NCBI GenBank assembly: GCA_035283785.1 | Contig: DATETG010000005.1 | Span: 2,902 to 66,901, forward strand | Reading direction: 5' to 3' | Length of the DNA: 64,000 bases | Origin: Candidatus Nanoarchaeia archaeon | GTDB lineage: Archaea > Nanobdellota > Nanobdellia > Pacearchaeales > GW2011-AR1 | Shown: positions 37,360 to 57,458 of the stretch, piece after piece | How the letters are laid out: every line of letters starts with the position of its first letter | How positions within the stretch are numbered: the stretch's first letter is position 1 | Notes under the pieces: model-generated | What the model saw: only the letters and a program-made list of their open reading frames with translations | Told to the model about the DNA's origin: nothing | Databases searched by the model: none | Made by a program: the position numbers and the translations under genes

Positions 37360-37374
37360 GGAAAGGTTTAAAAA
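37360..37374 (+). promoter_or_regulatory. BRE/TATA-like promoter element (GGAAAGGTTTAAAAA) about 22 nt upstream of the predicted 5S rRNA 5' end
   Basis: Purine-rich BRE-like GGAAAG followed by TTTAAAAA at the expected spacing from the 5S start (~37394). The identical 15-mer recurs at 55613-55627. Confidence 0.45.
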
Positions 37375-50720: not shown

Positions 50721-51491
50721 TTAACAAATCCCCCTCTCATTCAACTTCTTCTGAACATGGTTAAACAACGTTGAGGAAATCAAAGCTTGGTGGAAGCCAA
50801 TATGAATTTGTCCGTCAAACTTTATTTTTCCTAGATAAGTTTGGTTTTTTAGAATTTTTTTCAATCCATTAACTGAGAGATTGTGTTTTTTTGATAACTG
50901 GGTGAGAGAGATATTATTATTCAAAAATTCCTGGAAAAGTTCTCCTACAATATAAGAGTCTTCTTTTGGAACTAATTTTTTGTCAACTATTTTATAGCCG
51001 AAGGGCGCCCTTGAGATGGGGTTTCCTTCTCTAGCTTTTTTATCAAGAGAGAATTTAGTTCTTTCTCCGGTGACATTTCTTTCAAATTCTGCAAAAGCTG
51101 AAATAATATGGAACATAAGTTTACCTGATGCACTTGTAGTTTCTATTTTATCTTGAAGGGAAACAAAATCTACTCCCCACTCCTTAAGCTTTGCAATTGT
51201 ATCTATCAAATCTTTTAATGAACGTGAAAACCTATCAAGTTTGTAAATAAAAATTGCCTGGATTTTTCTGTTTTTTGCATCTTCCAAAAGATTTCTCATC
51301 TCAGGTCTTCCTTTAATGTCTTTTGCCGATTTTCCCTCATCCCTATAAACTTTGAAAATATCATAACCTAAAGCAGATGCATAATTTTTTAGTGCTTCCT
51401 CCTGTGCTGAAAGAGAAATTCCTTGTCTTGCCTGTTCTTCTGTTGAAACGCGAATATAAATTGCTGCCTGTGATTTTGAATTTTCTGCCAT
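50721..51491 (-). CDS. serine recombinase (resolvase/invertase family)
   Basis: N-terminus AAIYIRVSTEEQ...GISLSAQ...LDRFSRS matches the catalytic-Ser resolvase domain (YxRVSTxxQ, D..SR). A C-terminal ~100-aa extension follows. Confidence 0.85.
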   Translation of the reverse strand: MAENSKSQAAIYIRVSTEEQARQGISLSAQEEALKNYASALGYDIFKVYRDEGKSAKDIKGRPEMRNLLEDAKNRKIQAIFIYKLDRFSRSLKDLIDTIAKLKEWGVDFVSLQDKIETTSASGKLMFHIISAFAEFERNVTGERTKFSLDKKAREGNPISRAPFGYKIVDKKLVPKEDSYIVGELFQEFLNNNISLTQLSKKHNLSVNGLKKILKNQTYLGKIKFDGQIHIGFHQALISSTLFNHVQKKLNERGIC

Positions 51492-51723
51492 TTTCCTCTT
51501 TTTAGTGTGAACTTAGACCATTAAAGTTAAGGTGCACGTTACCTAAGAGGACACTAAGTATATAAATTTTACGTTGAAAAACAGGGTTTTTAGGGCCTAA
51601 AGGGCAAAATGGGATTCATACAGTATAAATTGCGTGGAGTTCTTATGTGTGAGTTTATTTTTGGAGACTTTTGTATACTTAGACTATCTAAGTGAACAAC
51701 TCAAAGGATAAATTTGAAAAAAT

Positions 51724-52020: not shown

Positions 52021-52131
52021 TCTTTATCTTAAAAAGTAGGATTTAAAAAATTTGTGATATGTGAACTTAGGTAACCTAAGTTAAAGAGAGATGGAACTAA
52101 CCGAAAATATAGTAATCCTGAGTACATCTAC

Positions 52132-52566: not shown

Positions 52567-52665
52567 GAGAAAAATTAAAATAAAATTGCTTCTTAAATTA
52601 TTATAATTATTCTTAAGGAGTGATCTGTCCTTTTTGTGAACTTAGGACAGCTTAGTTCATGTACG

Positions 52666-52717
52666 GGTGTTTAAAAGGTAAACAGGTGTTTGTGGGTGTT
52701 TAAACAGGTGTTTAAAA
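52666..52717. repeat. iteron-like array: 4 direct copies of GGTGTTT(AAA) at 10-19 nt spacing in a divergent promoter region
   Basis: GGTGTTTAAAA at 52666, CAGGTGTTTGTG at 52685, GGTGTTTAAAC at 52695, CAGGTGTTTAAAA at 52707. Further copies in both orientations lie at 53090-53131 inside the downstream ORF. Confidence 0.6.
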
Positions 52718-52857
52718 TAAAAATCTTGAAAAATTTTATGTTTTTGAAGAAATTTTTCTATAATTTATTGCTCTCTTTAGAAGAGCATTAACCCTAAAAA
52801 TTATTTTTTTCACGACGAAAAGAAAAGATTTTTAAAGTTAGATGTGTAAAAATTATA

Positions 52858-53454
52858 ATGTTCTGGTGGTTTTCTGGGAAAAAAGAGGTCGAACGAGTCA
52901 GGGAAGATGTTAAGGAAAGTTTTGAGTTAGTAAAAAAAGACATGAATGATCTTGGAGAATGGATTAAGCATCTTAACTCCCACAAGGAAATGCATAAAAA
53001 AGATATCGAGAGTATAAGGGATATTTTATCGTCGATAAAGAAAGACGTTGATGAAATTAAAAATTCATTTGAAAGTCAAGAAAGTACTGAAACACCTGTG
53101 GTGTTTAAAACACCGAAACGGGTGTTTAAAAAACAAACAGCTGTTTATGCTGTTCAAACAGCTGTTCAAACAGCTGTTCAAACACCCAAATTAGAACATT
53201 TCTCAATAACAGAAAGAGCGATTCTCTGGATTTTGTTAAACACAGACATGAAGCTGAGTTATGAAGATATTGCATCAATACTCGGAAAAGAGAGATCAAC
53301 AATAAGAGGTCAAATTAATACCATAAAACAGAAAAGTGAGGGCTTAATAATGGAAACTTCGGAGAAAAATAATAAGAAAAGAGTGTTTATACCTGAAAAT
53401 ATGAAAGAAAAACTCCTCAAAAAGGCAAAAGTGAGAGTTAAAAAAAGGAAATAA
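52858..53454 (+). CDS. coiled-coil plus C-terminal winged-HTH DNA-binding protein, with a (TAVQ)n low-complexity linker
   Basis: N-terminal heptad-rich region. The linker AVYAVQTAVQTAVQT is encoded by a 12-nt tandem palindrome. The C-terminus ERAILWILLNTDMKLSYEDIASILGKERSTIRGQINTIKQK is HTH-like. Confidence 0.45.
   Translation: MFWWFSGKKEVERVREDVKESFELVKKDMNDLGEWIKHLNSHKEMHKKDIESIRDILSSIKKDVDEIKNSFESQESTETPVVFKTPKRVFKKQTAVYAVQTAVQTAVQTPKLEHFSITERAILWILLNTDMKLSYEDIASILGKERSTIRGQINTIKQKSEGLIMETSEKNNKKRVFIPENMKEKLLKKAKVRVKKRK
53136..53183. repeat. tandem 12-nt repeat CAAACAGCTGTT (about 3 copies), each containing the perfect palindrome AACAGCTGTT
   Basis: Direct reading at 53136-53183. It is in frame within CDS 52858..53454. 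Confidence 0.7.
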
Positions 53455-53527
53455 ACTTAAAACATTAAGAGAAATGAGGGAAAATTTAGTAGAATTAGCA
53501 GGAGAATTAAAAATAGAGGGATCTTAT

Positions 53528-53566
53528 GTGGGTAAAAATACTTTCTTTTATCTTATTTTTACCCAC
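53528..53566. terminator. 11-bp perfect inverted repeat (GTGGGTAAAAA ... TTTTTACCCAC) between convergent genes; a likely bidirectional terminator hairpin flanked by T/A runs
   Basis: Arms at 53528-53538 and 53556-53566 with a 17-nt spacer. It lies between the stops of 52858..53454(+) and 53630..54313(-). Confidence 0.45.
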
Positions 53567-53629
53567 TACAAGTTATAATCTTCTTCAGATGCACACAAAA
53601 CAAAAGTTATTCGGTGAACAAGAAAACTA

Positions 53630-54313
<684 letters not shown>

Positions 54314-55473: not shown

Positions 55474-55590
55474 TTAAAATCATGATATTGGAATTTTATA
55501 AACTTTTCTGTGAAATTTTGTATATGTCCCGAAAAGAAAAAAATAAAGAAAACTAAAGAAAAATAGAAATAAACCTCTCAAAAAGTACAA

Positions 55591-56108
55591 GGGTCACCCC
55601 GCGGTTTCGTGTGGAAAGGTTTAAAAAGAAAATTCAAATTTTTTATATTTATTATTAATTTAAAAAAATTTATATTATATACTATATACTTATTACTTAT
55701 TATATTATATATTTATTAATATTGTATATTTATTAATACTACACAATTTTATGATACCTCCATTTATATTACACTGTTATCATATCATACAATTTTATTA
55801 GACAACTGTTGGTATTCTATAGCTATATTATCCTTGTCCAGTCTACAATTTTATTTTGTGTTATAAACTTATTACTTTGTTTGTTTGTGTTATATAATTC
55901 GTACACCTTGTTGTGTAGGATCACTGTAGGTCAATTTTATTGTGTAAGGTAGAGTTTTTGGATTCTCTATCTTCTCCCTTTGTACCTCCATGTCTCTCTC
56001 ACTTTTTTTTGCATTTCACATTCTGTTCTCACTTTACCCTTTGTTCTTCTGATTTTATTTTTTCCCGCGTCTAACTAATCTTTGAAAAATAACATTTCCA
56101 CAGGAAAC
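55591..56108. other. oriC: chromosomal replication origin (oriC): a full ORB-like element, an AT-rich unwinding region, and a mini-ORB, directly upstream of orc1/cdc6
   Basis: ORB-like element at 55591-55619 (reverse complement: CCTTTCCACACGAAACCGCGGGGTGACC, close to the archaeal ORB consensus TTCCA..GAAAC....GGGG). Extreme AT-rich repetitive DUE at about 55640-55900. Dyad mini-ORB TTTCCACAGGAAAC at 56095-56108. The orc1/cdc6 start lies at 56220. Confidence 0.6.
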
Positions 56109-56219
56109 ATTGGTGTCTTTCTTTTTTAGTAGTCATAATCCTTTATATACCATTCAAGTTTAATATCGAGTATAAATTTTTATTTTCCTAAGTTTCTATA
56201 GGAAATAAGGGTGTGACAC

Positions 56220-57458
56220 ATGGCAAATCAACTAGACAAAATATTTGAATCCTTTGACAAAAACTTTATTTTCAAAGACAAATCTGCACTGCAGATAAAT
56301 CACCAGCCAAAAGAGATAATCTACCGCGACGAGCAAATCAATCAAATAGCATCTATTCTTGCGCCGATTTTGAGGGGTGAAAGGCCGAGCAACCTTTTCC
56401 TTTATGGAAAAACGGGAACCGGAAAAACACTTTCAATAAAGCATGTCCGAGAGCATCTTCTAAAAAGAGTGAAAGAAGATGTTGGCTTCCAGCTGAGAAT
56501 AGAGTATCTTAATTGCAAATTAAAAAAAGTATCCGACACGGAGTACAGGATTTTAGCAGAGTTGATACGAAAAATGGGTGGTCAAGTTCCTACAACTGGC
56601 TTACCAACAGAATCTGTTTACAATAAATTTATAGAGATAGTTGATGAAAAAAAACAACTGGTAGTTTTGATACTTGATGAAATTGACTACACTGTTAAAA
56701 AAATATCGGATGACTTTTTGTATAATCTGACTAGATTAAACTCGGAATTGTCAAAAGCACAGATTTCCATTGTAGGAATAAGCAATGACCTGACTTTTTT
56801 AGAGAGTGTGGACGCAAGAGTAAGAAGCTCTCTTTCAGAAGAAGAAGTGATCTTCCCCCCTTATAATGCCGTTCAACTGAAAGAAATTCTAAAGAAAAGG
56901 GCAGACGAAGTTTTCAAACCAAATGTGGTTAATGAAGGGGTTGTTGAGAAGTGTGCAGCATACGCGGCACGCTCTCATGGTGATGCCCGTCGCGCCCTTG
57001 ATTTGTTGAGAGTTGCAGGAGAACTTTCAGAGAGAGAAGGTTCCAAGAAGATTCTGTTGGCACACATCGATGCTGCAAATGAAAAGATTGAGAGAGACAA
57101 GATTCTTGATGTAGTAAAATCCGAGCCAAAGCAATTCCAGTATGTTTTGTACTCAATAATCAAACTCTCGGAAAAAAGCAATCAAAAAAAACTTTCCCAA
57201 AAAAATGAAAGAGAATACTCACTGTTCACGGGAGAAATCTACAACTATTACAGAATGTTGTGTGAAAGAGACAAAATGGAAATTCTTACGCAGAGAAGAG
57301 TGAGTGATGTAATTCAGGAATTTGACATGTTAGGAATAATAAATGTAAGAGTCATATCAAAAGGGCGCGGAGGAAGGATGAGAGAAGTTAAACTGGCAGT
57401 TTCACCCCCAATAGTTGATAAAGTAAAACAAATAATAGAAGAGTCGCTTTTCAAATAG
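56220..57458 (+). CDS. cdc6: Orc1/Cdc6 replication initiator
   Basis: AAA+ Walker A LFLYGKTGTGKT, Walker B LILDEID, and a C-terminal winged-helix domain. 412 aa. Confidence 0.95.
   Translation: MANQLDKIFESFDKNFIFKDKSALQINHQPKEIIYRDEQINQIASILAPILRGERPSNLFLYGKTGTGKTLSIKHVREHLLKRVKEDVGFQLRIEYLNCKLKKVSDTEYRILAELIRKMGGQVPTTGLPTESVYNKFIEIVDEKKQLVVLILDEIDYTVKKISDDFLYNLTRLNSELSKAQISIVGISNDLTFLESVDARVRSSLSEEEVIFPPYNAVQLKEILKKRADEVFKPNVVNEGVVEKCAAYAARSHGDARRALDLLRVAGELSEREGSKKILLAHIDAANEKIERDKILDVVKSEPKQFQYVLYSIIKLSEKSNQKKLSQKNEREYSLFTGEIYNYYRMLCERDKMEILTQRRVSDVIQEFDMLGIINVRVISKGRGGRMREVKLAVSPPIVDKVKQIIEESLFK

Follow-up and report, generated by a model that had tools for sequence, protein, structure and literature searches.

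The stretch of DNA analysed here, 64,000 nucleotides from a Candidatus Nanoarchaeia archaeon (contig DATETG010000005.1, positions 2,902 to 66,901; hereafter the window), is an A+T-rich segment of an archaeal chromosome. It carries two arrays of short repeats, one upstream of and one inside a gene for a 198-residue winged-helix protein, which we refer to as the focal gene and the focal protein. The focal gene is divergent from a gene for a DUF5654 membrane protein and convergent with a gene for a 227-residue protein, p227. Across 80 related loci the same order is kept: a serine recombinase gene (minus strand), a variable gap, the focal gene (plus), then p227, an 89-residue winged helix-turn-helix (wHTH) protein termed wHTH89, a 136-residue open reading frame (ORF) termed p136 and a PRC-barrel gene (all minus), followed by cdc6 and dp1 (both plus). 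The features on which the argument turns are these, in coordinates of the window:

52665–52717, plus strand: array A, GGGTGTTTAAAAGGTAAACAGGTGTTTGTGGGTGTTTAAACAGGTGTTTAAAA, with four GGTGTTT arms, two of them within AAACAGGTGTTT pairs
52823–52837, plus strand: transcription factor B recognition element (BRE) and TATA box of the focal gene, AAAAGATTTTTAAAG, the TATA box starting 29 nt before the ATG
52858–53454, plus strand: focal gene, 198 codons
53088–53188, plus strand: array B, about 12 half-sites in codons 78–111 of the focal gene, including AAACAGCTGTTC three times and encoding TPVVFKTPKRVFKKQTAVYAVQTAVQTAVQTP

Two repeat arrays at fixed positions around one promoter

The initial annotation of the window had reported at least eight copies of GGTGTTT at this locus. 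Re-scanning recovered the eight where they had been placed, as well as the near-palindrome GGTGTTTAAAACACC (53100–53114). Upstream of the gene, four plus-strand copies are found at 52666, 52685, 52695 and 52707 (19, 10 and 12 nt apart); inside it, four more alternate in orientation (53090 minus, 53100 plus, 53108 minus, 53121 plus), and a ninth was found at 53180 (minus). The window holds 16 copies in total against 8.29 ± 2.68 expected, a number that none of 100 shuffles reached. Nine of the 16 fall within 521 nt (52666–53186), where 0.067 would be expected at shuffled density (Poisson probability of at least nine, 7.5e-17), and the remaining seven occur at chance density. When the extended motif was counted in 240-nt windows over the 64 kb, the mean was 0.34, and counts of 12 and of 6–7 were obtained solely at this locus. 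The repeats are thus not a generic feature of A+T-rich promoter DNA present everywhere at similar density, since elsewhere in the window and at related loci the motif stays at background.

The description of the repeat itself had to be widened. GGTGTTT is real, but it represents a single arm of a larger unit, AAACA-SS-TGTT(T/C), in which S is G or C. When GCTGTT(T/C) variants are included, the in-gene array does not end at 53131 but extends to 53188, and its copies, spanning codons 78–111 of 198, lie in the middle of the gene and not at its 5' end as first described. Array A is located 141–193 nt upstream of the focal ATG and about 100–150 nt from the divergent ATG. Array B contains a perfect tandem of three 12-nt units, GCTGTTCAAACA (53149–53184), and a 32-nt stretch of array A (52663–52694) is 84% identical to a stretch of array B (53118–53149). 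A 97%-identical relative (P0001) has exactly one 12-nt unit (VQTA) fewer in the tandem, which implies that the number of in-gene units changes by slippage between very close strains.

To place these arrays in their lineage, about 10 kb around the locus was fetched per related genome for 80 loci, and motifs were counted in 67–69 species-level Pacearchaeota/Woesearchaeota genomes. The focal proteins of the 69 genomes are just 60–70% identical. Within −3 to +5 kb of the focal ATG, the density of [GC][GC]TGTTT in 69 genomes showed only two peaks, at −300 to −100 and at +100 to +400, where it reached 26.5 (upstream) and 17.7 (in-gene) units per kb as compared to 1.09 elsewhere. Of 67 loci, 64 had at least three units between −330 and −90; of 2301 control windows, 19 did. 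Upstream, the recurrent unit positions are about −188, −178, −165 and −155; reverse units occur at about −171 and, past a T-run, at about −140/−130. The medians are seven sites in array A and ten in array B; the units are of mixed orientation in both arrays, spaced by 10/13 nt in the former and by 12/9/21 nt in the latter, and the two arrays share a similar spectrum of centre dinucleotides (GC, GG and few CC). Array A keeps its position and motif though the intergenic DNA around it cannot be aligned between genomes.

The promoter proper is a separate element. A TATA-like box starts at −29/−28 in 65 of 67 orthologous loci, which indicates an mRNA with little or no leader and places array A, upstream of the promoter, outside the transcript. 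These positions bear on two other explanations. The initial annotation had suggested that part of the array might be stacked promoters; GTTTAAA would then serve as a site for TATA-binding protein and transcription factor B, and indeed GGTGTTTAAAA resembles the promoter GGAAAGGTTTAAAAA of the 5S gene. Alternatively, array A could be a decaying slippage copy of the coding repeats, in line with the 84% identity of the two stretches and with the 12-nt indel described above. However, the A-rich tail on which the promoter resemblance depends is present in roughly one unit in two (the three positions after the core each being A in 39–51% of orthologous units), whereas the core G-S-TGTT is invariant; no start codon lies 25–30 nt from any unit, and the real BRE/TATA element sits at its own fixed place. 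Neutral decay, for its part, excludes the retention of position and motif amid unalignable DNA. We therefore see next to no chance that array A is either a promoter stack or a neutral leftover.

DNA-level constraint on the in-gene array

An AlphaFold2 model of the focal protein predicts a long helix or coiled coil (residues 5–75), a disordered segment (75–106, predicted local distance difference test score below 50) and a winged helix (117–192). In Foldseek searches the C-terminal domain matched proteins of the MarR/ArsR type only, among them MepR, SlyA, MarR, SmtB and AbfR2 (E about 3e-4). Sequence searches assigned the protein to no Pfam or NCBIfam family at cutoff, yielding generic wHTH similarity only, and found no relative among the sequences of the PDB; none of the sequence or structure searches gave a Rep match. 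The family itself is large: 2677 relatives were collected, the protein is encoded in 411 species-level DPANN genomes labelled Pacearchaeota, Woesearchaeota or Nanoarchaeota, and an exhaustive search of the narrow family gave 191 representatives at 50% clustering.

The predicted disordered segment coincides with array B, and its codons are conserved beyond what the peptide demands. In the orthologs, whose in-gene consensus is AAACAGGGTGTTTAAAACACCCAAACAGGTGTTTAACAAACAAACAGCTGTTTATGCTGTTCAAACAGGTGTTCAAACAGGTGTTCAAACACC, the threonines of array B are encoded by ACA in 97–99% of cases, as compared to 48% at the equally conserved T148; Val96 is GTT in 99% and the glutamines are CAA in 99–100%. The median relative synonymous entropy is 0.155 in the linker and 0.725 over the remainder of the gene (Mann-Whitney p = 3.5e-5), and third-codon-position conservation is 0.875 in the linker versus 0.66–0.69 in the folded domains on either side. 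Changes in the peptide leave the DNA motif intact. The variable linker residue alternates between Ala, Gly and Pro through GCT, GGT and CCT, that is, through the free G/C centre of AAACA-SS-TGTT, and V/L and TNR/PKQ alternations still preserve STGTTT and AAACAG. Array B is thus constrained as DNA. This resolves an apparent paradox, namely that the most conserved peptide of the family is at the same time predicted to be disordered: selection acts here at the DNA level. The linker peptide (VFKTPK..KQTAVYAVQTGVQTGVQTP) would accordingly be dictated largely by the DNA motif and not the reverse, amounting to lineage-wide dual coding over a run of about 100 coding nucleotides.

Two stretches in the 3' part of the gene are under further DNA-level constraint. 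K191-V192 (53428–53433) is AAA GTG in 100% of 69 orthologs, the background frequency of GTG being 25%, and the RVFIP stretch (53383–53396) is written as AGAGTGTTTATACC, which provides a further TGTTT arm.

A constraint on coding nucleotides could also act on the mRNA, with the repeats forming hairpins that control translation or stability and array A being a related transcribed element. In the window, array B folds at −38.5 kcal/mol (z = −5.45 against shuffles), and a terminator-like hairpin was called on the minus strand at 53134–53168. A good single-sequence fold is, however, expected of any palindromic repeat, and RNAalifold on 37 orthologs returned a weak consensus of −5.8 kcal/mol with a covariation term of −0.05 and one compensatory pair out of 13. 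The centres argue in the same direction: in-gene GG outnumbers CC by 100 to 13, so that most units have nothing on their own strand to pair with. A non-palindromic GG centre keeps the half-site symmetry of the DNA and breaks the self-complementarity of the RNA. Array A, upstream of the TATA box at −29, is not part of the mRNA at all, and a search of Rfam at a permissive threshold produced only sub-threshold chance matches far below the gathering scores. An RNA-level function of the repeats is, in our estimate, highly improbable.

Motif change between clades and the candidate binder

Beyond the close orthologs, the family divides into clades that differ in recognition helix and repeat motif alike:

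Clade 1 (the window and L003–L082): 60–70% identity; recognition helix STIRGQINTIKQKS; motif AAACA-SS-TGTT(T/C); upstream array in 64 of 67 loci
Clade 2 (L083–L104): 24–27% identity; recognition helix VTVRRHINDIKR; motif CGTTCA/TGAACG at 15.4 per kb; upstream array in 6 of 18 loci
Clade 3 (L114–L117): 32–37% identity by tblastn; recognition helix near that of clade 1; motif TGTCC/GGACG; upstream array in 0 of 4 loci
Clade 4 (L118): about 30% identity by tblastn; recognition helix SPNTIKNQLNQIRR; in-gene AGTCGACC; no upstream array found at this single locus

The in-gene array is, on the sequences compared, a universal feature of the family, and the promoter-side array is optional. In the clades that have both (1 and 2), the same motif is used upstream and in the gene. 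The upstream arrays of clade 2 directly adjoin the BRE/TATA element and contain their motif at 4.2 per kb against a background of 0.09, and the clade-1 motif is at background level in clade 2 loci. The clade 3 motif differs from that of clade 1 by one base, and the in-gene motif of clade 4, GTCGAC, is palindromic. Similarity of motif follows similarity of recognition helix, clades 1 and 3 being close in both (TGTTC and TGTCC) and clade 2 differing in both. Identical motifs in the two arrays, together with a motif that tracks the helix, suggest that one factor reads both arrays and that this factor is the product of the gene itself. Two of the clade 3 loci have upstream gaps of just 62–88 nt. 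One clade 3 locus and the clade 4 locus, which lacks p227, p136 and wHTH89 nearby, adjoin tyrosine integrase genes and are possibly located on mobile DNA.

We thus favour the view that the arrays are the cognate sites of the encoded protein and serve its autoregulation by looping or roadblocking, and put its probability at roughly 55%. An operator array had been one of the functions initially proposed, and this part is supported: in 64 of 67 genomes the sites are conserved at a constant distance from the promoter, and in a distant clade they differ in sequence along with the winged-helix protein. In the mechanism we envisage, the half-sites AAACA and TGTT(T/C), with a free G/C dinucleotide between them, would be bound as double-stranded DNA. 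The focal protein would form a parallel coiled-coil dimer with its two winged-helix domains on flexible tethers of about 30 residues, and such a tethered dimer could occupy half-sites of variable spacing and orientation; AAACAGCTGTTCAAACAGCTGTTC is a candidate array DNA for it. The arrays are about 460 bp apart, and the segment between them holds the promoter together with the 5' half of the gene. Simultaneous occupancy of the two would loop this segment out or act on it as a roadblock, resulting in negative autoregulation. It would also assemble a large nucleoprotein complex 1–3 kb from the chromosomal origin, and given the number of sites and their position near the origin, a larger architectural role is conceivable. 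In its C-terminal fold and in having palindromic sites near its own promoter, the focal protein is like the MarR/ArsR autoregulators. Unlike these, it is predicted to dimerise via a 70-residue N-terminal helix and not through the MarR helical bundle, and it has 7–12 sites per array instead of one or two, with one array placed in the gene. If the pairing of protein and motif is correct, the design would be self-contained, the regulator gene carrying its own presumed sites wherever it is moved, and the four motifs of the family yield candidate protein–DNA pairs that are testable in vitro without cultivation.

Several observations weigh against this assignment. The focal protein is proposed as the binder from co-occurrence and clade-level co-variation, and in clades 1–3 the wHTH genes next to it have diverged alongside, which limits what the co-variation of motif and focal protein can say; p227 and wHTH89 could be the binders there. 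The clade 1 arrays are far from the core promoter (−140 to −190 and +230 to +330), an unusual arrangement for a simple archaeal repressor, and half-site centres 5–7 bp apart are tighter than in typical MarR-type dimer operators. As clade 3 is devoid of upstream arrays (four of four loci), control of a promoter operator is not the function common to the family. Finally, the linker codons of p227 contain an origin recognition box (ORB) that is expected to bind Cdc6 and not p227, so that an in-gene site need not serve the product of its host gene.

A rival idea is that another factor encoded nearby (p227, wHTH89 or the serine recombinase) binds the arrays. Co-occurrence is high, with p227 present in 79 of the 80 loci and wHTH89 in 74, the wHTH neighbours diverge in clades 2 and 3 in step with the motif, and the ORB in p227 sets a precedent for a coding-sequence site read by a different protein. 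Yet the clade 4 locus L118 retains a palindromic in-gene array with p227, wHTH89 and p136 all missing from its vicinity, and it is the recognition helix of the focal protein that the motif tracks. We consider binding by a neighbouring factor unlikely.

The setting beside a probable replication origin

The arrays are origin-proximal. Between the focal locus and cdc6 there are 3.4 kb, and the in-gene ORB of p227 is about 900 bp away; downstream of p227 follow the 89-residue wHTH gene, the 136-residue ORF, the PRC-barrel gene, an A+T-rich gap of 746 nt, Orc1/Cdc6 and both subunits of DNA polymerase D. The relevant features of this region are:

53630–54313, minus strand: p227, 227 residues, convergent neighbour with coiled coil, linker and wHTH domain like the focal protein
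54032–54055, minus strand: canonical ORB in the linker codons of p227, ATTTCCACAGGAAATGATGGGGTT, encoding ISTGNDGV
55474–56219, no strand: gap between the PRC-barrel gene and cdc6, with an 80% A+T core (55630–55950) and tandem A/T repeats
55605–55618, minus strand: ORB-like box GTTTCGTGTGGAAA in the gap before cdc6
56094–56116 and 56194–56216, plus strand: ORBs upstream of cdc6, adjoining the 80% A+T core
56220–57458: Orc1/Cdc6, confirmed by TIGR02928 (403 bits)

The canonical ORB, TTTCCAnnGGAAA followed by GGGGT or GTGTG, is conserved upstream of cdc6 and inside p227, and we take 55474–56219 to be the probable chromosomal oriC. Inside p227 the box is kept in clades 1–3, even in clade 2, which has no cdc6 within 4 kb, and two loci (L007 and L009) have two inverted ORBs there. 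p227 appears to be a weakly related, distant paralog of the focal protein: direct BLASTP between the two was not significant, and they are linked only via the clade 4 homolog (E = 6e-4). Directly after the p227 ORB, an in-frame (TGTC)9.75 microsatellite (53990–54028) encodes TDRQ repeats. Other lineages have (ACAGAC)n, CAACAATCAT, CACT, AACAAAC or GTTATTATGCC at the same position, copy number and motif both being variable.

The arrays themselves are not ORBs: the TTCC..GGAA core was searched for, is absent from them and occurs elsewhere. Likewise, the array motif showed no peak at cdc6 in 55–59 genomes. A plasmid or virus context, suggested by the serine recombinase gene (50721–51491), was rejected because the recombinase is itself a conserved chromosomal neighbour, and a scan of viral contigs for a three-unit array gave no match. 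In about 80 genomes the locus is syntenic with ribosomal-protein genes, cdc6 and polD, which places it on the chromosome and not on a plasmid or prophage.

This setting speaks to the initial proposal that the repeats are iterons of a plasmid-type origin, or, by extension, initiator boxes of a second chromosomal one. An 81% A+T stretch flanked by the repeats, the vicinity of cdc6 and polD and the precedent of plasmids P1 and F, in which two iteron arrays flank the initiator gene, would suit a replicator. In its A+T content this stretch does not, however, exceed ordinary intergenic DNA or the oriC core, the arrays contain no ORB-like core, with canonical ORBs lying elsewhere, and the locus is chromosomal and syntenic. 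Nor do the repeats look like iterons: the units measure 7–12 nt, in mixed orientation and at 10/12/13-nt spacing, instead of forming 17–22-bp direct repeats in helical phase. The focal protein is not Rep-like, having one MarR-like winged helix and not two WH domains, and clade 3 has the in-gene array only, where upstream gaps of 62–88 nt (two loci) leave an origin no room. The plasmid-type origin is thus not borne out, and a replicator of either kind seems to us extremely improbable.

A more serious competitor to autoregulation is an origin-proximal complex for chromosome organisation, partition or replication control, comparable to parS/ParB or parC/ParR, in which the coiled coil would bridge or pair DNA and autoregulation would be a side effect. 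Its appeal lies in the membership of the gene in a cluster kept in about 80 genomes (focal gene, p227, wHTH89, p136, PRC-barrel, cdc6 and polD), in its closeness to cdc6 and to the in-gene ORB, in an in-gene array that is universal where promoter-proximal sites are optional, and in medians of seven and ten sites per array, which exceed the need of a simple operator. Some genomes additionally carry a two-unit site, CCTGTTCAAACAGCTGTTT, 2–3 kb upstream. On the other side, the conserved cluster contains no nucleoside triphosphatase (NTPase) of the ParA/ParM type, and the fold is a plain MarR-like wHTH, neither ParB (helix-turn-helix plus CTPase) nor ribbon-helix-helix. Clade 2 lacks cdc6 within 4 kb, and the integrase genes beside clade 4 and one clade 3 locus hint at mobile DNA. 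Of the hallmarks of a centromere system, a cluster of sites near the origin, in or beside the gene of the presumed binder, is present, and the fold and the NTPase partner are not. On balance, we regard such a complex as unlikely to be the primary function.

In L010, L031, L040, L041 and L048 the extra site CCTGTTCAAACAGCTGTTT, at about −2.0 to −2.7 kb, falls at the 3' end of the recombinase gene. Comparable two-unit sites occur 2.4–3.5 kb upstream in L016, L050, L056 and L059, and the window has no copy.

Known systems share individual traits with this locus. In the ParR-parC system of plasmid R1, the operon encoding the repeat binder has a promoter with a cluster of short tandem repeats on either side, and the one element parC is both the autoregulatory operator and the place where a large nucleoprotein complex assembles. 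ParR has a ribbon-helix-helix fold, the 11-bp iterons of parC are in helical phase on a plasmid, and the gene of the ParM motor is adjacent. The arrangement of two repeat clusters around the promoter of the binder gene is alike here, but a coiled coil plus wHTH takes the place of ParR, inverted half-sites at 10/12/13-nt spacing take that of the iterons, and the downstream cluster is coding sequence on a chromosome with no NTPase partner in the conserved cluster. In plasmid P1, and similarly in F, repA is bracketed by arrays of its own sites, incC and incA, of which the upstream one mediates autorepression and the second pairing or looping; these initiators have two WH domains and bind 19-bp direct repeats at a plasmid origin. 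The focal gene resembles repA in being bracketed by two arrays of presumed sites of its product, but it has no Rep features, a separate Cdc6/ORB origin lies close by, and the second array is in-frame coding sequence. In Bacillus subtilis, an origin-proximal palindromic site, parS, lies within spo0J (parB), the coding sequence of its own binder; it is a single 16-bp site in the gene, with more copies over the origin region, and ParB has a CTPase domain and a ParA partner. Neither this CTPase fold nor a ParA partner was found here.

In-gene ORBs have an archaeal precedent. In Pyrococcus/Thermococcus, a cluster of ORBs and mini-ORBs is located in the coding sequence of dp1 beside oriC and is bound by Cdc6 in vivo, an ORB being defined there by a TTCC...GGAA(A) dyad core that is often followed by a G-string (PMC1904270). 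The in-gene ORB of p227 matches this case directly, whereas the GGTGTTT arrays are devoid of a TTCC...GAA core and are hosted by the gene of a DNA-binding protein that co-varies with the motif. Thus parC/ParR, P1 incC/incA, parS in spo0J and the dp1 ORBs each anticipate a single trait, and what appears to be new is their combination: an array of presumed cognate sites in the linker codons of a regulator throughout a family, a matched promoter array in two of four clades, and an ORB-bearing paralog alongside. The literature searched held no description of a DPANN origin or of this protein family.

The combination invites a broader and more speculative interpretation, to which we give a small probability only, that the focal protein and p227 belong together in a module specific to DPANN archaea, which would serve origin control or chromosome partition and have its assembly sites in their own linker codons (AAACA-SS-TGTT in one, an ORB plus variable microsatellite in the other). 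Were this true, one and the same piece of DNA would make up both the origin region and its regulators, and the arrays would constitute a centromere-like or licensing element in archaea that are without any known segregation system. The arrays and adjacent ORBs mark the probable chromosomal origin region of Pacearchaeota and Woesearchaeota, which are uncultured and have small genomes.

The remaining elements of the locus are as follows:

52636–52659, plus strand: PAL, an imperfect palindrome, GTGAACTTAGGACAGCTTAGTTCA, forming the upstream boundary of array A
52813–52818, no strand: CG box, CGACGA, a palindrome TTATCGWCGATAA in orthologs, adjoining the BRE on its upstream side
53026–53039, no strand: in-gene copy of the CG box, TTATCGTCGATAAA, encoding L-S-S-I-K

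The CG box is a second conserved cis element, which about 45 of 67 loci have between −48 and −44. In the gene its density peaks between +100 and +200, and Ser58, which lies in the in-gene copy, is TCG in 92% of orthologs against a background of 13%. Copies in orthologs centre on about −46, +170 and −255, the last of these following an optional distal module.

Imperfect palindromes of the PAL type, about 24 nt long (GTGCACTTAGGTTAGCTTAGTT), occur in the window at 51507–51560, 52061–52085 and 52636–52659, with a copy ahead of each small gene that lies between the recombinase gene and array A. Loci L003–L082 have one to five copies between the recombinase gene and array A, nearly always in one orientation, and these separate small genes that differ among genomes (58 ORFs in 36 families); a longer variant of the palindrome, GTGAAC..GTTCAC, adjoins the start of the recombinase gene. 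The small genes could represent a cassette array with recombination sites, or the palindromes a shared operator. For array A, PAL is best viewed as sequence context.

The 15-mer GGAAAGGTTTAAAAA, situated 22 nt upstream of the 5S rRNA gene (37360–37374), has an identical second copy at 55613–55627. This copy marks the left edge of the oriC gap and faces its A+T-rich core; it could act as a strong promoter directed into the origin, or belong to an unannotated small RNA. A 13-bp inverted repeat, GTGGGTAAAAATA ... TATTTTTACCCAC (53528–53566), separates the focal gene from the convergent p227 gene; it is probably a bidirectional terminator, and the 80-residue ORF that overlaps it (53526–53768) looks spurious.

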